Virus record (IMG/VR): IMGVR_UViG_3300007513_000131 | Coordinates: 1-30,952 of that record | DNA length: 30,952 nucleotides | Origin: a virus | Lineage: Duplodnaviria > Caudoviricetes | Reading direction: 5' to 3' (one strand) | Shown: positions 4,232-30,952 of the stretch, piece after piece | Layout of the letters: each line of letters opens with the position of its first letter | Position numbering within the stretch: position 1 is the stretch's first letter | Translations under genes and position numbers: made by a program | The notes under the pieces: generated by a model | The model's database searches: none | Told to the model about the DNA's origin: nothing | The model's input: only the letters and a program-made list of their open reading frames with translations

Positions 4232-5032
4232 ATGCAAACAGTCTCAAGGTATTTACTAACAAACTCGGTAATTGTTTACCAAAGCGGTTATCATGGAAGG
4301 AATTCAAAAGTGTACGATAGACGTCTACAAGTGTATAGAGGTGTATGGAACCCGCTTACTTTTACCTTCAAAAACGAAGATCAAAAGGCTCAAAATGTGG
4401 TTGGAAAGACTTATACCTTTAATATTGTTGATACTGAAAGCAAAAAAGCAGTAGTTACACGAAACCTTAAAATACTTGACGATGGGTCAACTCAAGCGTC
4501 AAAAGGTACTGCTTCAGTAGATATTACAGAGGGCGATCTTTTACCTTTAGATGCAAAATTTTATGAGTATTCTATACAAGAAGTACTAACAGATGGTAGT
4601 ACTTTAGTAACTTACGCAGATACAAACTATGTAAGTAGTGGTACTATTGAGGTGCTTGATGGTGCTTATCCACAATTTTCAGCAAGTATATCAGTATCAG
4701 ATTTTACTGGTTCTGGAGGACCATTGCAAAAAACATCAGGATCTATTAGTGCTAATCCTGGTAGTAATAATAATAAAGCACTACACACAATTGCTGTGTA
4801 TACCAAAAACTTTTCGGGTGCTTTAAGAGTACAAGGTACTATGTCTTCTTCTCCTGCAGATGCAGACTATTTTAACATTACTTTAGATGGAGAATCATCT
4901 CCTGTAACTTTTTCCAGTTCTACTACTGTTGCCAACTATAACTTTTATGGTGTTTTCCATTATGTAAGATTTAGTTGGGATAACGACACTGGTAATACTG
5001 GAGTCATTGACAAAATCCTTTATAGACGTTAA
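4232..5032 (+). CDS. Probable virion structural protein (beta-rich)
   Basis: Ser/Thr/Gly-rich, beta-type composition; preceded by a late promoter motif. Confidence 0.6.
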   Translation: MQTVSRYLLTNSVIVYQSGYHGRNSKVYDRRLQVYRGVWNPLTFTFKNEDQKAQNVVGKTYTFNIVDTESKKAVVTRNLKILDDGSTQASKGTASVDITEGDLLPLDAKFYEYSIQEVLTDGSTLVTYADTNYVSSGTIEVLDGAYPQFSASISVSDFTGSGGPLQKTSGSISANPGSNNNKALHTIAVYTKNFSGALRVQGTMSSSPADADYFNITLDGESSPVTFSSSTTVANYNFYGVFHYVRFSWDNDTGNTGVIDKILYRR

Positions 5033-5035
5033 AAT
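5007..5035 (+). promoter_or_regulatory. Sigma70-type promoter for primase (leaderless)
   Basis: TTGACA-N17-TAAAAT, then 7 nt to ATG 5043. Confidence 0.75.
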
Positions 5036-5042
5036 ATAAGGT

Positions 5043-6056
5043 ATGAACCTGATCCAGAATACAATTCTGAATTCATTACCTGCGAACAAAAAGAAAACAC
5101 CTTCCGGATGGATTTCTTTTAATGCTCCTTGTTGCATTTATAATGGGGAAACTCAAGACAAGAAAAAACGTGGTGGTATAATGGCTGGAGCTGATGGCAC
5201 AATATCATATCATTGTTTTAATTGTGGCTACAAAGCCAGTTATGTTATAGGAAGAAAATTAACTCAAAAAATGAGAACATTTATGGGTTATATTGGTATA
5301 GCAGATGATACAATCAAAAAACTTGCTATTGAGGCTATGCGTCATGAAGAGGGTGACACAAAATATGAAAAGAAAAAGTTTGTAAGTTTTCATAAAAAAC
5401 AAATGCCTAAAAATACACACAGCCTTGACGTGTGGTTAGAAAAATATGTTGCAAAAGATTTAACTGCACCCCAATATAATAAAATTGACGGCTTGTTAAA
5501 TTATCTTAAAGTAAGAGGCATAGATCCTACATGGTATGATTTTATGTACTCACCTGATATGTATTTTAATTTTAATCAACGTTTAATTATTCCGTTCTAT
5601 TGGAGGGGTGACGTTGTAGGTTACACTGGTAGACTATTTGAAGATATTGAAAAAGTAAAATATGTTACAGATGTGCAACCGGGTTATGTGTTTAATATGG
5701 ACACGCAAGATTGGACAAGAAAATTTGTTATTGTAACAGAAGGACCGTTTGATGCTATTACCGTTTCTGGAGTAAGCATACTAGGATCAGAGATAAATGA
5801 CGTACAGCGAGAGCTGATAAACAATTTAAATAGACAGGTAATTGTAGTACCTGATAGAGATGCACCGGGAGAAAAATTGATTAATCAAGCAATAGAATTT
5901 GGATGGAGTGTTGCGTTTCCAGAATGGGATAAAACGGTTGATGATGTAGCTGATGCTGTGTTAAAATATGGAAGACTGTTTACTATACAATCGATATTAA
6001 AATCAACAGAGTCTAGTAAACTTAAAATAGATTTAAAGAGAAAGATGTATGGCTGA
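5043..6056 (+). CDS. DNA primase (Zn-binding + TOPRIM)
   Basis: NAPCC...YHCFNC zinc domain; EGPFDA, PDRDAPG and DVAD TOPRIM motifs. Confidence 0.9.
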   Translation: MNLIQNTILNSLPANKKKTPSGWISFNAPCCIYNGETQDKKKRGGIMAGADGTISYHCFNCGYKASYVIGRKLTQKMRTFMGYIGIADDTIKKLAIEAMRHEEGDTKYEKKKFVSFHKKQMPKNTHSLDVWLEKYVAKDLTAPQYNKIDGLLNYLKVRGIDPTWYDFMYSPDMYFNFNQRLIIPFYWRGDVVGYTGRLFEDIEKVKYVTDVQPGYVFNMDTQDWTRKFVIVTEGPFDAITVSGVSILGSEINDVQRELINNLNRQVIVVPDRDAPGEKLINQAIEFGWSVAFPEWDKTVDDVADAVLKYGRLFTIQSILKSTESSKLKIDLKRKMYG

Positions 6057-21129: not shown

Positions 21130-21345
21130 TTACTTACTGTGTGGAGGTAATTTCTTTTCAACCCACCAACGATGCTTACGTGTAATGGGATCGTACTTAC
21201 GTACTTTTAACTTTTGATTTTTCTTTTCACCTTTATTAGGTTTCATTGCATAATAATAAAATGCGTGATCTTTTGAATCTGAATCTTCTGGAACTAGTCT
21301 TACTTTAGTATAAGGTCGTTTAGTTTTTGGTTTATCTGCTGGCAT
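21130..21345 (-). CDS. rpmG: Ribosomal protein bL33 homologue (Zn-independent type, divergent)
   Basis: KVRLV...FYY..K...KLKVRKYDPITRKH...E matches the bL33 consensus. Confidence 0.8.
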   Translation of the reverse strand: MPADKPKTKRPYTKVRLVPEDSDSKDHAFYYYAMKPNKGEKKNQKLKVRKYDPITRKHRWWVEKKLPPHSK

Positions 21346-22394
21346 TAACTTTCCATTGTTGTTAATATACGATTAGTAACCTTATAAGGATCAGCATTAC
21401 CTGACGGGCGTCTGTCTTCTAAATAACCTTTCCAATTATTTTGTGTAAGTGCTAATGGAATTCTAATACTTGCTCCTCTATCACTAACACCGTAACTAAA
21501 CTTATCAATGTGTTGTGTTTCGTGTAAGCCAGTTAAACGTTCATCATTCTTACTACCGTACTCTGCAATATGTTCTTTATGAAAAGAACTAAACAGATCG
21601 CAAATACTTTTAATATAATCTTCTCCACCTTCGTTTCTCATCTTATCAGTTGAGAAGTTAGTATGCATACCGTTGCCATTCCAATCTCCCTTAATTGGTT
21701 TTGCTTCAATGTTAACATCTATGCCATATTTTTCTGCTGTTCTATAAAGTATATAACGTGCCATCCAAGCATTATCCGCGGCTTTTTTTGCACCTCTGCC
21801 AAACACTTGATACTCCCATTGTCCTAACATTACTTCTGCGTTTGTTCCGTGTAATGATATTCCTGCTTTCAAACAATTTGAAATATGTTCATGCATTATG
21901 TCTCTACCTGTAAACATCCTTGCTCCTACACGATTAGCATTACCTACTAAGGTTTGGCCAACGTTGGCTGTACCTATTCCGCAATAATAATCACCTTGTT
22001 CTTTTGGATACCCTTCTGTAGGCCAACCTAATGGGCGTTCATTTTCAATAAACGTATACTCTTGTTCAAAACCAAACCAATATTCTTTTTGGTTCTCACT
22101 TGTAATTTTTGCTCTTGTATTTGATATGTGTGGCGTTCCATCTGCATTGTACACTTCACATAACACTATTTGATCAGAATCAAATGGACTATTGTATAAA
22201 CGTATAGGTTTTAATACACAGTCCGAACTTGATCCTTTTGCTTGTTGTGTACTTGATCCATCAAATCCCCACTCAGGAACTTCTAATAAGTTTGTACAAT
22301 ATCTGTCTATGATTTTAATTTTTGATCTTAAAGTAGCTTCGGGTTGATATCCATCTAGCCAAACATATTCTAGTTTATTTTTTTTAACTTCCAT
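21345..22394 (-). CDS. glnII: Glutamine synthetase type II
   Basis: EYVWLDG, WGFDGSST, GFEQEY, EVMLGQWEYQV, GDWNGNGMHTNFST, RLTGLHET, DRGASIRIP, EDRRP; 349 aa. Confidence 0.95.
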   Translation of the reverse strand: MEVKKNKLEYVWLDGYQPEATLRSKIKIIDRYCTNLLEVPEWGFDGSSTQQAKGSSSDCVLKPIRLYNSPFDSDQIVLCEVYNADGTPHISNTRAKITSENQKEYWFGFEQEYTFIENERPLGWPTEGYPKEQGDYYCGIGTANVGQTLVGNANRVGARMFTGRDIMHEHISNCLKAGISLHGTNAEVMLGQWEYQVFGRGAKKAADNAWMARYILYRTAEKYGIDVNIEAKPIKGDWNGNGMHTNFSTDKMRNEGGEDYIKSICDLFSSFHKEHIAEYGSKNDERLTGLHETQHIDKFSYGVSDRGASIRIPLALTQNNWKGYLEDRRPSGNADPYKVTNRILTTMES

Positions 22395-22551
22395 TCTTTT
22401 CCTTCCATCTTTTATATCCTTTTATCCAGTAGTCTTCTTCGCTGTGTAGTCCTTCTACAAACGACTCAAAATCGGCTGTAATAGAATAAGGTTTAATTCT
22501 TGTGTCTTTCTTTAACAGTTTCCAAAACTTCTTTTCTCTTTTCTTTGCCAT
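22384..22551 (-). CDS. Small hypothetical protein (55 aa)
   Basis: MAKKREKKFWKLL...; overlaps the glnII start. Confidence 0.55.
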   Translation of the reverse strand: MAKKREKKFWKLLKKDTRIKPYSITADFESFVEGLHSEEDYWIKGYKRWKEKNGS

Positions 22552-22621
22552 ATCTAAATCCTAGGTAGTAAGCTACTACTATGAATGCTGTAATCAATAC
22601 TGTGTGCCAAATATAAAACAT
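22493..22621 (-). CDS. 42-aa single-TM protein
   Basis: MFYIWHTVLITAFIVVAYYLGFRYGK... Confidence 0.6.
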   Translation of the reverse strand: MFYIWHTVLITAFIVVAYYLGFRYGKEKRKEVLETVKERHKN

Positions 22622-22631
22622 ATTGTATATA

Positions 22632-23504
22632 TTAATTAAACACTGCGTTTAAATGTGATTGTGGTTTCCTTATATTGTTTGCAATAGCATCATCTTTTGA
22701 TATTCTGTGTAAACTATTTCCTTCTACTCTGTAGTAAGGCTGGTTAACAAATTTAATATGTTTTTCTTTATCCAACACCTCGTTTAACTCAACTTTGTCG
22801 TACGGCGATTGGATATATGCATCTGAGTCGGCAATAGGTTTAACCTTTTCTCTATCCAGTTTATGTTTTATGTACAATGCCTGTGTGCCACACAGTACCA
22901 TACACATAGGAACTACAACTTTATCGCCAAAGTAATCTTTAAATTCCTGCATAAAACTTTTAGGATATTTGTGAACGCACATACCAAACGTGGTCCAATG
23001 GCTATAGTCGTGATTGAGTGTTCTAGCATATTCGTACACTTGAAAAAATATTGGTTGATAAATGTCTCTTGCCATACAGAATTGATGCATAGGATCATTG
23101 CCTTGTTGAGATACATATGGCGCCCAGTTGTTCCACCAATTAGATTCATTGTTGTCTTCAAACATCCAGTCTGGCAACAGGGGACCCCCGGGCCAGTCTC
23201 CGGTGTCTTTGTATTCGTTGTGTTGTTCGGGTGTGCTTTTTTCTAACAGCCACACTGCCGCGTGAGATACATTGAATGGATCACGGTGGGTGAATCCACC
23301 ATTCTGTGTGCAAACCCAGTTGATAAACTTATCTGCTAGTCCTACACGGTCTGGCAACCATAGTCTAAAGTTGAGTCTGTTGTCAAATGGAACTCTCAGT
23401 GCATTGTACACTGCTTGATTTACATGATTGGATGCAGGATCTTTGCTGTGATCTGCGTAACCTACTGTTTGATAAATTAAGTTTCTGTCTCTTTGTATTT
23501 TCAT
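22632..23504 (-). CDS. Hypothetical protein (290 aa)
   Basis: Long ORF directly downstream of clpP; no recognised motif. Confidence 0.8.
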   Translation of the reverse strand: MKIQRDRNLIYQTVGYADHSKDPASNHVNQAVYNALRVPFDNRLNFRLWLPDRVGLADKFINWVCTQNGGFTHRDPFNVSHAAVWLLEKSTPEQHNEYKDTGDWPGGPLLPDWMFEDNNESNWWNNWAPYVSQQGNDPMHQFCMARDIYQPIFFQVYEYARTLNHDYSHWTTFGMCVHKYPKSFMQEFKDYFGDKVVVPMCMVLCGTQALYIKHKLDREKVKPIADSDAYIQSPYDKVELNEVLDKEKHIKFVNQPYYRVEGNSLHRISKDDAIANNIRKPQSHLNAVFN

Positions 23505-23506
23505 TG

Positions 23507-24112
23507 TTATTGCTCCTGTTTGTTGTCGTCTTCTCTACTAGTTACTATTTTATCTGCAAGTCCATAAGCTACTGCCTCGTCTGGTGTCATGAATTTATCT
23601 CTTTCCATATCATCTTTAAGTTTATCTAAAGGTTGCCCTGTGTGCTTTTCATAAATTTTTGTAAGTTCGTCCTTCCATCTTAACAATTCATTAGCTTGAA
23701 TTTGTACATCTGTTGCTTGTCCTCTTGCTCCACCTAATGGTTGGTGTATCATATGTCTACCGTGTGGTAACATAAATCTTTTTCCCTTTGTTCCTGCTGT
23801 GGCAAGTAATGATCCCATTGAACAGGCTTGTCCAACAACAATAGTTTGTATGTCAGAGCGGACGTACTGCATGGTATCATATATCGCCATACCAGCAGTA
23901 ACTAATCCGCCTGGGGAGTTTATGTATAATGTAATATCTTTTTTGCTGTCTTGTGATTCTAAAAATAACAATTGGGCACACAATACTGATGATGTGCGTT
24001 CATCAATTGGGCCTTCCAACATTATAATTCTGTCTTTAAGTAAGCGAGAGAATATGTCGTAACTACGTTCTCCTTTACTTGTTTGTTCTATTACTATCGG
24101 TGTTAGTGGCAT
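23507..24112 (-). CDS. clpP: ATP-dependent Clp protease proteolytic subunit
   Basis: [25 protein letters not shown] (Ser), MIHQP (His), ERD (Asp). Confidence 0.97.
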
Positions 24113-24119
24113 ATAATTT

Positions 24120-24148
24120 ATTGTATACTAAAAAAGTTATTTTGTCAA
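24120..24148 (-). promoter_or_regulatory. Sigma70-type promoter for clpP (leaderless)
   Basis: TTGACA-N17-TACAAT, then 7 nt to ATG 24112. Confidence 0.75.
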
Positions 24149-25078
24149 TACTTGGCTTTTAACATATTCGAATGTTCTACGTAAGCCTTCTTCTAATGGA
24201 AAGTTTGGTTTCCATCCTGTAAGTTTCATTATTTTGGTATTATCAGAATTTCTTCTCATACATCCAGCCGGACCTGCTGGAAGATATTTTTTTGTGATTT
24301 GTTTACCAGATATCTTTATTAACATATCAGCAAGTTGTGTCATTGTAATTGCCTCATCTGATCCCATATTGATTGGAATATGAACATTGTTTTCTATAAG
24401 TTTATCAAGTCCTACCATTAGGTCATCTATATAACAGAAAGATCTAATTTGTGTTCCGTCTCCCCATATTTCTATTTCGCCTGGGTCTGATGCATTTAAT
24501 ATCTTAACACACATCGCGGCAACTACTTTTGAGTTTTCAAAAATATCTGAGTAAGGCCCATACATCGCATGGAATATTGGTAATGCAACTTTCATATCAT
24601 AATACTTTGCATACTCTTGTACCAACTGCATATTGTAAAGTTTTTCCATTCCGTATATATTTCCTGCAGGCTTGGCTGGCCATATGTGTTCATCTTCATT
24701 TAAGTCTGGACCATTGTGTCCTTGCACATCTGTATTGTACATCATGGCCGAACAAGCATAAATGAAATGTGATTTATTCTTTGCCGCAAAGTCTAATGCA
24801 TGAATTGATTGTATTGGATTACTTCTTCCGGTTGCCATTTGTGCTGAGCCGACAAACTTAGAGTTTGGTACGTCAGCCGACAAATGATAAACTCTATCAA
24901 AGTCGTTTTCAATTGTAATTTTATTTTCCATATTATGGCCATGGAACTCATCAACAAAAACAGGATCACCTGTTTTAAGTTTTTTATCTAAACCAACAAC
25001 GTAATGTCCTTGTTTCTTTAAATGCTGTGCTAAATTTTTTGCTATGAACCCTTGACAACCTGTAATAAGAACTTTCAT
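24137..25078 (-). CDS. NAD-dependent epimerase, GDP-mannose 3,5-epimerase-like
   Basis: ITGCQGFIA, YGMEK, EIWGDGTQIRSFCYIDD, RNSDNT motifs. Confidence 0.85.
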   Translation of the reverse strand: MKVLITGCQGFIAKNLAQHLKKQGHYVVGLDKKLKTGDPVFVDEFHGHNMENKITIENDFDRVYHLSADVPNSKFVGSAQMATGRSNPIQSIHALDFAAKNKSHFIYACSAMMYNTDVQGHNGPDLNEDEHIWPAKPAGNIYGMEKLYNMQLVQEYAKYYDMKVALPIFHAMYGPYSDIFENSKVVAAMCVKILNASDPGEIEIWGDGTQIRSFCYIDDLMVGLDKLIENNVHIPINMGSDEAITMTQLADMLIKISGKQITKKYLPAGPAGCMRRNSDNTKIMKLTGWKPNFPLEEGLRRTFEYVKSQVLTK

Positions 25079-25094
25079 GCTTCTATTTAATTTT

Positions 25095-25934
25095 TTAATT
25101 TTTCAACGTCTTCCAATATGGATGTGTTTGTTTTGTGGTAAGATCTCGTTTTTTAGATGTCATAGCCACTTTACGATCATAACCTTTTAAATGATCCATG
25201 TATTGGCCAAGCTCACTATTAATAAATGGATGCCTTGCTTTTCTATCTCCGGACCATCGGCCATCGTTTAAGTCCTCATTTTTTATTTTTCCGGCCTGTT
25301 CCATTTCAAGTCGCACTGCATCAAATGTAAACGAATCTGTATAACCTGCTATTGGAAAATGATTTAGGAATCCTTTTTGTATATTAAAGAACAAATCTTC
25401 AGCATAATATTGTTCCCACCTTTCAAAAAATTCTGTTGCGTACTTATGAGCGGTGTTGAAAGCATAGTATCCTGTTTCTGAAAAGCCTTTCTTGGGTCTT
25501 CCTAGATATGATGTGAACGCAGTGTTTGGTAATATATGTTCTAGCCAAGACATAGGAATCTTTTCAAATGTAATAATGTCTGCATCTAAGTACCAAAGCA
25601 TATCGGGTTTTGTTTTATAGTATGCATCTATACAGGCAAATACTTTGTAGCTGAATCTAATAGCATCATATTCAAACTTATATTGTTGTGGTTGCCATTT
25701 TGTAAGTCTCGGATTATCTTTGTTTCTTTCAATAAACTCTTTTAATACAAGTTGCTCTTTACATAAATCATAATACTCTGTTCGAGGCAACTCAAGTTGT
25801 TGTGACATGTCATCTGGATACAAAAGTATTTTTGCATGGCCCGGCCAATTCTTTACTGTACTTTGAATTCCTGCCTGTACAGGTTTAGGCCAATATTTTG
25901 GCCCCCATGTTGTTACAATTGTTAATGATTTCAT
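25095..25934 (-). CDS. Glycosyltransferase-like protein, paralogue 2
   Basis: RFSYKVFA...YLDAD...YLGRP...SETGY...HPF...DHLKG. Confidence 0.7.
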   Translation of the reverse strand: MKSLTIVTTWGPKYWPKPVQAGIQSTVKNWPGHAKILLYPDDMSQQLELPRTEYYDLCKEQLVLKEFIERNKDNPRLTKWQPQQYKFEYDAIRFSYKVFACIDAYYKTKPDMLWYLDADIITFEKIPMSWLEHILPNTAFTSYLGRPKKGFSETGYYAFNTAHKYATEFFERWEQYYAEDLFFNIQKGFLNHFPIAGYTDSFTFDAVRLEMEQAGKIKNEDLNDGRWSGDRKARHPFINSELGQYMDHLKGYDRKVAMTSKKRDLTTKQTHPYWKTLKN

Positions 25935-27127
25935 TTTACAAAGCTAGATATCACTTCGTACAATTTATCGATTCCTTCTTTGATATTTTCACTACCGTTT
26001 CCTACAAAGAATCCGTTGTTGTGTATATCATCTGCGGCTGTCATTTGTTTTGAAGCTAAAAGAATTTTATTTGGGTTTACCCATTGTCCTGAAACAATAA
26101 AGTCTAAGTCTCTCATAACAGGTTGTTTTAAAAAGTTTCTTGATGCTAACGGTCTATTTTGTATTCCGGCTTTGCTCAATGCGTTAATAACTTCTGCTCT
26201 ACGACCTTTTAACTCTCCATCTAGAACCATTCCAAACGTAAACCAACTGCTTTCACCTATTTCTTTTTGTATTCTGCACCACGGCTTATCTGCAAACAGT
26301 GAGAAGAAATGTTCTTTGTTTGCTAAACGTGTTTCCATAATGTTATTCCATTTAGTTAATTGTGCTGAACCAATTGCTCCACTCATCTCTAGTGGTCTAA
26401 TGTTATAGCCCGGAGTTGCAAAAATAAAGTTATCGTTAAATGCGTTTCCTGTTTTTTGATACAATGTCGAGTTATCTGGTAAATCTCTAACCCAACCATG
26501 TGCTCTCATACTTCGCATATAGTCTGCATCATCTTTATCTGTGCATAAAACCATACCGCCTTCCATTGTTTGTATATGATGTGAAAAGAAAAATGAGAAC
26601 GATCCTGCTAACCCTATCGCTCCTGTATACAAACCATTATACTTTGCACCCATACTTTCGCAATTGTCTTCTATTAATAATAAATTGTGTTTGGTGCATA
26701 TGTCTATTATCTTGCTATACTCGCAACTGTTACCTAGCAAGTTAACTGGCATGATAGCACAGGTATCAGGAGTAATTGCATCTTCAATTTTGTTTACATC
26801 AATATTCCAAGTGTTAGGATCTACATCAACAAAGTTAATCTTAAATCCGTTTTGTACTATAGGAAAATATGTTGTTGCCCAACCAACCACCGGAACTATA
26901 ATATTTCCTGTTAATTTATACTTCCACTTTAATAAACTTAACATTAATAAGTTTGCTGACGAACCGGAGTTAACCATTACAGCATGTTGACTACCAAACA
27001 GTTGTGCGAATTCTTGTTCGAACTGCTTAACGTGTTTGCCCATTGTGTACATGTCTGTATCAATGACTTTTTGTATTGCTTCTAACTCTTCTTTCCCCCA
27101 AGTAGAATATGCTAATGGATATATCAT
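25931..27127 (-). CDS. DegT/DnrJ-family PLP enzyme, ColD-type GDP-4-keto-6-deoxymannose 3-dehydratase
   Basis: VNSGSSANL, EDNCES, SFFFSHHIQTMEGG (His in place of the catalytic Lys), RAHGW, GYNIRP. Confidence 0.85.
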   Translation of the reverse strand: MIYPLAYSTWGKEELEAIQKVIDTDMYTMGKHVKQFEQEFAQLFGSQHAVMVNSGSSANLLMLSLLKWKYKLTGNIIVPVVGWATTYFPIVQNGFKINFVDVDPNTWNIDVNKIEDAITPDTCAIMPVNLLGNSCEYSKIIDICTKHNLLLIEDNCESMGAKYNGLYTGAIGLAGSFSFFFSHHIQTMEGGMVLCTDKDDADYMRSMRAHGWVRDLPDNSTLYQKTGNAFNDNFIFATPGYNIRPLEMSGAIGSAQLTKWNNIMETRLANKEHFFSLFADKPWCRIQKEIGESSWFTFGMVLDGELKGRRAEVINALSKAGIQNRPLASRNFLKQPVMRDLDFIVSGQWVNPNKILLASKQMTAADDIHNNGFFVGNGSENIKEGIDKLYEVISSFVK

Positions 27128-27921
27128 TTGTCCTCCTTTGGAACCAGTACTGATGGGAATACACTAGGCTCTGCTAACTCTGGTTTATTGTGTAATTTCT
27201 TTTGGCCTTTCATATGTATTAAAAACTCTGACAGTGGAGATGTTGGTACTGGGTCTTTAGTATTCATTCCTTTATGATACTTCATTAAGTCCATTTGTTT
27301 ACAATACTTAAATGAATCTCTTCCTATTGCCATTGTATATTGATCTGCTTGTTGGTTGTCATACCCCCATAACTCTCCACTAATATAAATCTCTTCTAAT
27401 CTATTTGCCCATTTCTTTGCTTCTGGGTGCTTTGGGTTATGCATATAAAATCCGGTTTCATCTCTCATTTTTGGCCTGTCAAAAAATGTACACAATGAAT
27501 CGGCTGGACAAATTTCTCTAAGATAATCTAAATTAGGTTTGGCTGTATACAATGTATCTGCATCTGAATATAATATAACATCTGCGTTAGAATTTTTTAC
27601 CCTGTGTGTTTGTGCAAAAACTTTATGTGAAAACTTAACACCGTTGTTTTTCCATACGTACTTTTGTCTATCCTCTCGCCAACCATGTTTTACAGGATCG
27701 TCTTTCCATTTGTCTACAAATTCTTTTAGTTGAGGTTGTGCTTTATACAGTTCATGGTAAACAATATTATCTTGGAATATCTCTGGTTCTTGCTCTTGCC
27801 AATATGCATGAAGTATACAGTCTTTTGGCCAATACTTAACAAACGACTCTATCATGTTCTTGGCACATAGATCATAATATCCTTTATTATAAGTTGTGCA
27901 AATTTCTACAGTTCTTGACAT
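27124..27921 (-). CDS. Glycosyltransferase-like protein, paralogue 3
   Basis: KFSHKVFA...YSDAD...DRP...ETGF...HMKG; start at ATG 27921 (MSRTVEICTTY) aligns with the paralogue N-termini. Confidence 0.7.
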   Translation of the reverse strand: MSRTVEICTTYNKGYYDLCAKNMIESFVKYWPKDCILHAYWQEQEPEIFQDNIVYHELYKAQPQLKEFVDKWKDDPVKHGWREDRQKYVWKNNGVKFSHKVFAQTHRVKNSNADVILYSDADTLYTAKPNLDYLREICPADSLCTFFDRPKMRDETGFYMHNPKHPEAKKWANRLEEIYISGELWGYDNQQADQYTMAIGRDSFKYCKQMDLMKYHKGMNTKDPVPTSPLSEFLIHMKGQKKLHNKPELAEPSVFPSVLVPKEDK

Positions 27922-27945
27922 ATTGTAATTTAGCAGGTTTGGTGT

Positions 27946-28007
27946 TGGCTGTCTACCTTTTACACCCGGGCACCTCTGTAGAAGATACCCAGGGGGGTCT
28001 ACAGCCA
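27946..28007 (-). ncRNA. GC-rich structured hairpin element in the operon leader
   Basis: TGGCTGT/ACAGCCA outer stem, ACC/GGT, and a 12-bp inner stem CCTGGGTATCTT/GAGGTGCCCGGG with G-U pairs. Confidence 0.55.
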
Positions 28008-28015
28008 CTTAATTT

Positions 28016-28113
28016 ATGCTTACCTATTCTTGCACACAGGAGTTGCCCTTTACGGCCATGTTGCTTCGGACTCTCGCCTTCACAACAGGTGTCTATACTT
28101 CCACCATAAGCAC
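28016..28113 (-). ncRNA. tRNA-like RNA with extended anticodon arm and no canonical anticodon loop
   Basis: GTGCTTA/TAAGCAT acceptor stem, GTG/CAC D-stem, TGTTG/CAACA stem, long variable arm, CCTGT/ATAGG T-stem; begins 7 nt after a consensus -10. Confidence 0.7.
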
Positions 28114-28120
28114 ACTAGTA

Positions 28121-28149
28121 ATTATATGATCTTATAATGATTTAGTCAA
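28121..28149 (-). promoter_or_regulatory. Sigma70-type promoter driving the tRNA-like RNA
   Basis: TTGACT-N17-TATAAT with an overlapping TAATTA late-type motif (28119-28124). Confidence 0.8.
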
Positions 28150-28173
28150 GCAAAACCAAATAACTATACATAT

Positions 28174-28446
28174 ATGACGTCACAAGTTCCTAAACGCACA
28201 CGACAAATACAAAGGCATTACCTCGATAAAAAACAAGCAGAGAAGCATTGTATAGATATAGAACAATACTTTGAGCAGGAACTCCGAAGTTATATGAAAT
28301 ATGCTGTTAATGTAATACTACAAGGATCTATACTAACTCATAGACAACGTGTAGATTTTATAAGAGGATGGATGCGTTCTTGGTTATCTGATGATAAGTT
28401 ACACAAACGATTGCACAAACATAAGAATTCGTCTAGGCCTACTTAA
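28174..28446 (+). CDS. Hypothetical protein
   Basis: 90-aa ORF 7 nt after TAACTA. Confidence 0.65.
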   Translation: MTSQVPKRTRQIQRHYLDKKQAEKHCIDIEQYFEQELRSYMKYAVNVILQGSILTHRQRVDFIRGWMRSWLSDDKLHKRLHKHKNSSRPT

Positions 28447-28639
28447 GAAGGTCAACGTTGTCTAGTTCACACACACCCCATATATGATCACCATGGGGAA
28501 CATCGTTGAAATTTTTAGCATACTGTTCGCATATCTCTTGGCTCTCAAAATGCATACGATGCCATCCATCATAGTTCAATGATTCTGCTGTATGCCATCC
28601 ACCATTTACTAAAAAATATACTACTAACGCCCATTTCAT
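28439..28639 (-). CDS. Small protein with FxSxExC...C pattern
   Basis: 66 aa; ATG 6 nt after TAAATA. Confidence 0.7.
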   Translation of the reverse strand: MKWALVVYFLVNGGWHTAESLNYDGWHRMHFESQEICEQYAKNFNDVPHGDHIWGVCELDNVDLLK

Positions 28640-28683
28640 ATTTGTTATTTAGAATATTTCGACTATGTATTAAATACTAGGTT

Positions 28684-28863
28684 ATGGAAATAGTAGATAC
28701 CAATTTTGTGTATGCTTTTATAGTAGCATGGAATGACGTTTCTCGTGGTGTATTCCTCACTGAATACTTTGCTAGTTTAGACGAATGTATGTCATATTTG
28801 CAATCATGGATCCATGATCCCACTCAAGTTAATCTAGAGTGTATCCAATTAATTTCCGATTAG
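28684..28863 (+). CDS. Small protein with FASLDEC...C pattern (59 aa)
   Basis: ATG 7 nt after TAAATA (28671-28676). Confidence 0.65.
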   Translation: MEIVDTNFVYAFIVAWNDVSRGVFLTEYFASLDECMSYLQSWIHDPTQVNLECIQLISD

Positions 28864-30158: not shown

Positions 30159-30181
30159 TAAACTATAACGAAAGGAGTTGA

Positions 30182-30379
30182 ATGCCAAACATATCATCAC
30201 AACAAGTAGCCTATCTAAAAAGCCTAGTCAAGTATAAGTCATACTCAGTACATCACAAGTATCACTCGCCTGCTCATATCAAGTTCAAGTCATATGCTAA
30301 AGCCAAAGCCTATTGCATAAAGCACAATCTTGACTATAAATCAAGTTGGGTCCTTACTACTGTCAATCACTGTATATAA
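30182..30379 (+). CDS. Small basic His/Tyr/Lys-rich protein (probably early)
   Basis: Strong SD and its own promoter; followed by a 17-bp hairpin (30391-30429). Confidence 0.8.
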   Translation: MPNISSQQVAYLKSLVKYKSYSVHHKYHSPAHIKFKSYAKAKAYCIKHNLDYKSSWVLTTVNHCI

Positions 30380-30582
30380 TAACCCAACATATGTATAACA
30401 CATTATATTCATTATAGTGTGTTATATGTCATTAGTGCCGGAGGCCGATGTGGTAATCGTATTGCTCGGGCGGGGTAAACTCAGATTGGCTATGTGGTTA
30501 TTGCATGATCGACTTACTTCATAAGTCAGGCCTTCTCTTCGTTCATGCCATATACACATAGAACTCTATACTATATAGGGGA

Positions 30583-30738
30583 TTACCAATCCTTACCATA
30601 CCAACCCAGCGTCCTACCAATCTCTACCAGCGTAGAAGGGTACCCATCGACCAAACCAAATACACCAAGTTAGAACACACCGGAAGCAGACATCAATAGG
30701 TCTCCATATTACCAACGCTTACCATTCCTTACCATCTC
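30583..30738 (+). repeat. Degenerate 10-bp tandem repeats with TACCA core
   Basis: TACCA at 30584, 30594, 30599, 30615, 30625 and at 30710, 30720, 30730. Confidence 0.7.
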
Positions 30739-30952
30739 CGATAGCGTACCGACGGTATGGCATATTGTTCCAGATCGTACTCCGTCTCAACCATTCGCAC
30801 GGTGGTCATATGGGCAGGATAGGATAAGCGAAACAAAGTATTACCAAATAAAAATAGTTAGGATGGCCGGTGTAGCTAAAATACGATATGCTTTTATTCC
30901 ACCATACGACAACAATAGATATATAATGTTATGCCTACCGAGAGAGAACGAG

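Follow-up and report, generated by a model that had tools for sequence, protein, structure and literature searches.

It is not settled why bacteriophages carry tRNAs, or whether the odd ones among them serve as tools or are junk, a question that bears on a predicted small RNA encoded in the phage DNA considered here. The window, by which we mean the whole stretch of 30,952 nucleotides analysed, covers 31 kb of a virus record, and another, longer record (G001), of 72.7 kb, comes from the same phage; as the latter is estimated to be 21% complete, the full genome should measure about 350 kb. The primase of G001 shares 30–36% identity with the primases encoded by PA5oct, by Atu_ph07 and by GAP32-like jumbo phages. 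A preliminary description of the window had proposed a tRNA-like RNA on its minus strand, maintained but unable to decode. The questions raised are what this RNA is, from what it descends and what purpose it may serve.

Genomic setting

The element stands ahead of a likely operon on the minus strand. The first gene of this run (27124–27921, with its ATG at 27921) encodes a protein of 265 amino acids, likely a nucleotide-sugar transferase with a DxD motif. Searches of Pfam and PHROG with this protein gave no match, and comparison with solved structures gave none below E 0.67; the nearest named clusters are Glyco_transf_8 and Nucleotid_trans, at 0.96, on 18–31% of members. The rest of the likely operon (24137–27127, minus strand) comprises a DegT aminotransferase, a second transferase-like gene and an NAD-dependent epimerase, and the same strand carries host-like genes for ribosomal protein L33, glutamine synthetase and ClpP at 21130–24112.

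Other unusual sequences are present in this phage. Positions 30400–30952 of the window, which hold no open reading frame of at least 50 amino acids, form together with G001:25523–26100 a region of short repeats and hairpin-like segments that ends at a second atypical tRNA, 460 bases past the window end (L118:5983–6055, plus strand, equivalent to G001:25983–26055). This tRNA has a CAU anticodon, the T loop UGCAAUU and G8A9, and lacks CCA; it scores 38.5 bits with Rfam, is not called by ARAGORN and has the UGCAA loop in common with the element. A stretch of about 200 bases over a small gene (30171–30373) recurs at G001:42543–42749 with 76% identity.

Structure of the cloverleaf

The element is a 99-nt, tRNA-Leu-like cloverleaf of five stems (28015–28113, minus strand), in which the closing stem runs to 28016 and is followed by an unpaired A at 28015, the discriminator A73; the bases after it are AAT, so that CCA is not encoded. 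Minimum-energy and centroid predictions alike return this cloverleaf (at −30.1 kcal/mol and z −2.48, 2 of 200 shuffled sequences being as stable), and a true tRNA-Thr of the window, folded for comparison, gives z −2.41 with 5 of 200. The stems claimed in the preliminary description are thereby recovered. The 5' strand of the acceptor (28107–28113) pairs with 28022–28016 over 7 bp, including the G1.U72 and G3-C70 pairs also present in the Leu-type genes of related phages. It is followed by U8 G9 and a tRNA-Leu-type D arm (28089–28106), which is identical at 15 of 18 positions to that of an intact tRNA-Leu in the related contig G006 but has the G18G19 pair replaced. The anticodon arm (28059–28087) is enlarged to 29 nt: above a 5-bp stem, the 19 nt that replace the anticodon loop fold as a U.G pair, a 3x3 GAA/GAA internal loop and a short stem (GG/CC, a bulged U and C-G) capped by a GAGA loop, much as the purine-rich internal loop and GAGA-capped stem had first been described. 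The variable arm (28045–28056) keeps a 3-bp stem in all four known sequences while its loop varies, and the arm in the T position (28023–28040) has 5 bp and an 8-nt loop, GUGNAAGA, which is a T-loop of the UGNAA type and not UUC.

The element thus combines kept tRNA landmarks (7-bp acceptor, A73, U8/A14 and long variable arm) with the loss of others. The elbow pairs G18-U55 and G19-C56 are missing, and the absence of the D-loop GG, of a canonical T-loop and of an encoded CCA was confirmed, the three true tRNAs of the window all encoding CCA. There is no 7-nt anticodon loop with U33 and a leucine anticodon, and position 33 would be a G; judged from its sequence, the element almost certainly cannot decode, as had been proposed. 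ARAGORN and Rfam, both suggested at the outset, do not recognize it: ARAGORN makes no call, Rfam gives no tRNA match at E<=10, and no other Rfam family matches. Two further identities were considered and rejected. A tmRNA would carry the G3.U70 alanine acceptor where the element has G3-C70; a tag frame and a canonical T arm were not found, and ARAGORN and Rfam made no such call. A 6-codon frame that opens at +1 is unlikely to be coding, as its ATG-GTG-GAA derives from the tRNA-Leu D arm and is present in the intact gene of G006 too.

Predicted promoter and message leader

Upstream of the element lies a sigma70-type promoter, TTGACT-17-TATAAT (28121–28149, minus strand), with the -35 box at 28149–28144 and the -10 box at 28126–28121. 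The first base of the element, 28113, is the predicted +1 and lies 7 nt past the -10 box, and the ATGs of primase and clpP each lie 7 nt past their own -10 boxes, so that the coordinates match the spacing given in the preliminary description. A consensus promoter scan of 23400–28700 returned 24 matches against 24.3 in shuffled sequence, the promoter of the element (11/12) being among the two best; since this count does not exceed the shuffled level, what supports the promoter is its conservation (33 of 36 positions identical in contig L028) and not the scan. Transcription is predicted to start at 28113, without a 5' leader ahead of the cloverleaf. Leaderless gene starts occur across the clade, the ATG lying 5–9 nt past a sigma70 -10 box in 69 of 75 related primase loci (L036–L115), and within the window they are found at 5007–5043 (plus strand) and 24148–24112 (minus strand).

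A second structured element, absent from the preliminary description, adjoins the cloverleaf downstream, ahead of the sugar-transferase operon (27946–28007, minus strand). It is a long GC-rich hairpin with a tandem AG internal loop, an A-rich bulge and no U tract; it is strongly stable (z −4.18, with none of 200 shuffles as stable) and is identical at 51 of 60 positions in L028. From here a conserved A/C-rich linker (27922–27945, minus strand), which has no Shine-Dalgarno sequence and is identical at 23 of 26 positions in L028 over 27922–27947, leads to the ATG. As the hairpin (28007–27946) and the 24-nt linker reach the ATG at 27921, the predicted leader of the message measures 192 nt. No terminator-like sites were found on the minus strand. 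A pairing of 7 bp between the D arm and the loop of the second hairpin is possible in both lineages available. Comparison of the hairpin by eye with the consensus of HDV-like, hammerhead and pistol folds gave no fit, and Rfam gave no match.

Conservation and distribution

Three further copies were found in metagenome contigs by one scan: L026 and L027, with flanks 92–94% identical, and L028, the most distant, with flanks 79% identical; the conservation analysis covers two independent lineages only. The cloverleaf is identical to that of L028 at 89 of 98 positions, against 83 of 135 four-fold codon sites in three flanking genes (Fisher p 3.5e-7), and to that of L026 at 97 of 98, against 64 of 74 four-fold sites. 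DNA further upstream is identical to L028 at 109 of 298 positions. Identity to L028 drops upstream of the -35 box and again, at third codon positions, soon past the ATG; the conserved block spans exactly the interval from the -35 box to the ATG. Of the nine differences from L028, four fall in the acceptor stem, where all pairs are kept (one change being compensatory on both sides and two one-sided), and five are unpaired. Unpaired bases are identical at 37 of 42 positions and paired bases at 52 of 56; no position of the D arm or of the enlarged arm differs among the four sequences (the window, L026, L027 and L028), and the C56-like base varies between C, U and A. Taken together, the high identity and the preservation of pairing by every stem change indicate that the element is not decaying, and the proposal that it is maintained has held. 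Of the covariation that was looked for to support that proposal, the pairing-preserving changes are present, but with two independent lineages the signal does not rise above shuffles (164/500). On this comparative evidence it is highly probable that this is a real structured element under selection.

Exact-pattern scans of viral contigs returned only G001 or chance matches (12/13 in one scan, 5/6 in another). From 51 of 64 parts, a permissive scan for three motifs yielded 119 loci; 100 of these were scored with a search model, R1, the best reaching E 0.086, and none proved real when stems were checked. Model R1 found only G001 among 50 and a further 10 clade contigs, two bins and five complete jumbo genomes, the 50 being drawn from 80 primase contigs with the 30 shortest left out, and model R2 likewise found only G001 among the 50. 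A genome collection search gave 0 homologues, and BLAST of phages and plasmids nothing real. The absence of further copies from these searches implies that the exact form is narrowly spread. No description of the element was found in the literature searched, and the catalogue of structured phage RNAs in PMC10690425 gave no match in six of its supplementary files. In phage Phosso, R1 produced a non-significant alignment (8.3 bits, E 1) in an intergenic stretch that is structured and lies 1.9 kb upstream of Ro60; this phage has, 1.5–2 kb upstream of Ro60, a 500-nt unannotated and strongly folding intergenic stretch (L270:2244–2754, plus strand), which has no Rfam match and is a candidate non-coding RNA.

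Probable origin in a series of tRNA-Leu genes

A tRNA search of the 50 clade contigs revealed low-scoring tRNAs on contigs with a homologue of the transferase. In G002, G004, G005, G006 and G061, a Leu-type gene stands at +1 of a -10 box and ends in CCA, beyond which come a GC-rich hairpin and an ATG; in the first four, a gene with a tRNA-Leu D arm begins 6–7 nt past TATAAT. Of the five other viral contigs with a transferase homologue, four carry the Leu-type gene on the strand of the transferase-DegT pair, 7.5–8.6 kb upstream of it, and some genes between the two lie on the opposite strand. G003, which has the transferase, shows no Leu-type gene in about 11 kb upstream, and the gene of the same layout on G061:C66 belongs to a bin that contains an apparent counterpart of G003 on another contig. 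The bin (L256, L258, L295) is labelled as a Pacearchaeota archaeon but contains phage-clade contigs and is likely mis-binned.

These genes differ in how far they have departed from a standard tRNA. Those of G006, a Leu(UAG), and G061, a Leu(CAA), are intact, so that the 7-nt loop is preserved in two of the five, while the anticodon arm is altered in three: it is enlarged in G004, not assignable by ARAGORN in G005, and reduced to a 5-nt loop in G002, which also lacks the long variable arm. U8, G9, G3-C70, U72 and A73 are common to all eight sequences tabulated, U72 occurring also in two of six control tRNAs; pair 2-71 is U-A in the element and C-G in the Leu-type genes of its relatives. A model (R3) was built from G002, G004, G005 and G006 only, with the element excluded, the training genes having been picked after the likeness of the D arms was noticed. 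In the 72.7 kb of G001, R3 located the element and placed both of its ends exactly (21.4 bits; E 7.5e-4, a rough value), by a match to the acceptor and D arm only that skipped 66 nt. Among six matches the element came third, being outscored by two true tRNAs and outscoring another, and was the sole non-tRNA under E 0.3. No other tRNA-Leu was found in G001. As the element was recovered without having been in the training set, it is likely to be the far end of a series of tRNA-Leu remodelling.

Several observations set limits on this likeness. The 15/18 match over the 18-nt D arm compares with 14/18 at the next-best places in G001, and such a D arm is common to tRNA-Leu generally. MAFFT places the ancestral T loop on the variable-arm junction of the element and R3 skips the T arm, and whether the arm in the T position descends from the ancestral T arm is uncertain. 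The element adjoins the transferase here but lies 7.5–8.6 kb off in relatives, so that orthology by position is loose; in G004 and G006, the genes that separate tRNA and transferase are matched in G001 by transferase paralogues only, which is consistent with loss or movement of that block. Considering the acceptor, the D arm, A73, the promoter layout and the neighbourhood together, descent from tRNA-Leu appears probable, and a Leu-type ancestry, in line with the class II look first ascribed to the D and variable arms, is supported by the likeness to G006 and by R3.

Other structured RNAs accompany these genes. In G004 and G005 the element after the Leu-type gene (L285:400–483, minus strand; L284:459–540, plus strand) is a three-way junction with loops complementary over 6 bases, possibly a kissing-loop RNA. 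G005 also has a 100-nt tRNA (L282:478–580, plus strand; G005:4677–4776) with a Leu-type D arm, a very long A/U-rich variable arm, U1-A72 and G73, which ARAGORN calls as Thr with an intron.

Possible functions

The reading that we favour, at a probability of about 0.4, is that this conserved, anticodon-less cloverleaf, likely a descendant of tRNA-Leu, is released from the sugar-transferase message and likely functions, in place of decoding, as bait whose tRNA shape attracts a protein. The element would form the first 99 bases of that message and, with transcription beginning at its base 1 (28113, as predicted), 5' trimming would not be needed. Cleavage after A73 would free the RNA at its 3' side and leave an mRNA whose 5' end carries the GC hairpin; such release is suggested by the intact tRNAs of relatives, which must be cut out at their 3' ends from the same layout, provided that the element has inherited this processing. 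The invariant loops (D loop, GAA/GAA loop, GAGA and GUGNAAGA) may offer a new binding surface for a host protein that recognizes tRNA, and the conservation of unpaired bases to the same degree as paired ones makes it likely that the loops bind something. A candidate target would be a host defence nuclease directed at tRNA; depletion of tRNAs by host defences has been put forward as a pressure on phage tRNAs (a hypothesis in the available part of PMC10264068). On the other hand, 3' processing and mimicry might themselves be defeated once G18G19, the UUC loop and CCA are lost. In a related contig (92% identical in the transferase; a single contig at depth 5.5), other sequence precedes the ATG, with a TATAAT 8 nt ahead of it, so that this gene does not need the element. 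The decoy and the processing-signal roles considered in the preliminary description both remain candidates.

The same evidence can be read with the RNA acting in cis, the tRNA relic and GC hairpin being kept as a 5' leader of 192 nt, either to protect the end of the message or to be cleaved so that a sugar-transferase mRNA fit for translation is set free. This main rival comes close to the favoured reading, though the odds are rather against it. It would account for a conserved block that runs exactly from -35 box to ATG with no terminator and no Shine-Dalgarno sequence, for the persistence of the promoter-tRNA-hairpin-ATG layout in five relatives while anticodon arms erode in three, and for the possible D arm/hairpin-loop pairing. 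However, the layout already exists with intact tRNAs and may simply be inherited, and the hairpins of relatives are unrelated in sequence; the next gene varies among relatives (HAD-like, alginate lyase-like, radical SAM), which speaks against a gene-specific role, as does the relative with a -10-like box before its ATG instead; and 48 invariant bases, loops included, would seem to exceed what end protection needs. An aminoacyl carrier was also suggested at the outset; in the form considered here, a non-decoding RNA would be given CCA by host enzymes and charged by LeuRS, and would donate leucine to a non-ribosomal transferase. A73, U8/A14 and the variable arm are retained, and the anticodon arm is dispensable for leucylation according to the part of PMC2377443 available. 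The features that this source names as critical, however, are A73, U8-A14, G18-U55, G19-C56 and how the variable arm is oriented, and of these the two elbow pairs are absent, with the C56-like base varying; an encoded CCA is likewise missing, and the window showed no gene for an aminoacyl transferase. The loss of G18G19, the UUC T-loop and CCA makes leucylation unlikely and the carrier role is weakened accordingly; it is likelier for the genes of G002, G004 and G005, which retain GG, UUC and CCA.

The remaining alternatives are less probable still. A decaying tRNA pseudogene, its similarity between lineages reflecting recent exchange of the block, would fit the loss of most tRNA landmarks, the finding of only four copies and the absence of the element beside the transferase in one close relative; every stem change keeps pairing, though, similarity stops at functional borders, and identity to L026 (97/98 against 64/74) further lowers a reading already disfavoured, to which we give a slim chance. 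Much the same applies to a metabolite- or protein-sensing aptamer unrelated to tRNA: the UGNAA loop and a GUAUAG stretch are similar to the consensus that the FMN riboswitch shows in its T-loop and L6, and the element lies upstream of a metabolic operon, but G001 has no FMN match, no Rfam match or expression platform was seen, and tRNA-Leu explains the D arm better. It is very improbable that the element is a Y RNA in unpermuted form whose contact with Ro60 is made by GUCCGAAG, in the 3' side of the enlarged arm. In the portion of PMC4201824 at hand, the Ro60 stem of YrlA replaces the anticodon arm and carries GNCGAAN0-1G, and GUCCGAAG matches the vertebrate motif GGUCCGA at 6 of 7 positions in the equivalent place; Ro60 is encoded by two of five distant complete jumbo phages. 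Against this, the bacterial motif itself is not present, the near-invariant tRNA-like T and D arms of YrlA are lost here, G001 has no match to YrlA (RF02553), and a TROVE gene is absent from 50 clade fragments (G001, 21% complete, and 49 others) and two bins, with none within 4 kb of the element. That the element is an ordinary tRNA whose anticodon loop holds a small intron to be removed, as an arm 12 nt above standard might suggest, can scarcely be entertained: removal at 37/38 leaves G at 33, the internal loop is symmetric and not bulge-helix-bulge, the D loop, T loop and CCA would still be abnormal, and ARAGORN, run with the intron option unset, made no call.

Comparison with known systems

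The element is a tRNA mimic and not a functional tRNA-Leu. With bacterial class II tRNA-Leu (RF00005, and the genes of G006 and G061) it shares the 7-bp acceptor, U8 G9, a 3-bp D stem with its loop frame, the variable arm, A73, the +1 position and the adjoining hairpin; it differs in its 29-nt anticodon arm without a 7-nt loop, the missing G18G19, the 8-nt T-position loop and the missing CCA, and is found by neither ARAGORN nor RF00005. The YrlA Y RNAs of bacteria and phages (RF02553; PMC4201824 and PMC12135203, in the parts available) are likewise tRNA mimics, with a CGAAG-bearing stem in place of the anticodon arm and on the equivalent strand; in contrast to these, the element is unpermuted, has no canonical T or D loop, lacks the motif and has no Ro60 nearby. 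In phage Atu_ph07, a gene annotated as Clp protease-like (L269:1592–3247, minus strand) bears a TROVE (Ro60) domain (E 3e-34). Phage tRNAs with altered anticodon loops also change in the anticodon region, but those in the section of PMC10264068 available still decode, whereas the element and the genes of G002 and G005 have no standard loop. Irregular allo-tRNA-like sequences are, in the excerpt of PMC7609411 available, five-stem tRNA-like RNAs incapable of translation; they are of 8/4 or 9/3 form and are linked to soil bacteria and mobile elements, phages not being mentioned in that excerpt, while the element is of 7/5 form and stands at +1 of a phage promoter. Finally, its two loops recall the docking modules of the FMN riboswitch (PMC2615604, in part), from which it differs in lacking an RF00050 match and two T-loop/receptor pairs.

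Implications

What is new here is that five related contigs with a Leu-type gene in the same layout likely form a remodelling series of tRNA-derived mimics, with natural intermediates between an intact tRNA-Leu and a conserved RNA without anticodon, standard elbow or CCA, all in one gene neighbourhood. More speculatively, a clade of jumbo phages might be converting tRNA-Leu stepwise (first intact, then with a shrunken loop, next with an enlarged arm and finally with the elbow rebuilt and CCA lost), so that a new class of RNA arises which does not decode but serves to bait or block a host defence that targets tRNA, the element being the fully converted form; we hold this tentatively. The relatives and the element make up a set of RNAs on which charging, processing and nuclease action could readily be tested, and the element itself is an example of a structured phage RNA missed by ARAGORN and Rfam alike. 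If the decoy role is true, this would be an RNA-based counter-defence; if the RNA acts as a leader, a tRNA fold would have been reused for the control of mRNA.
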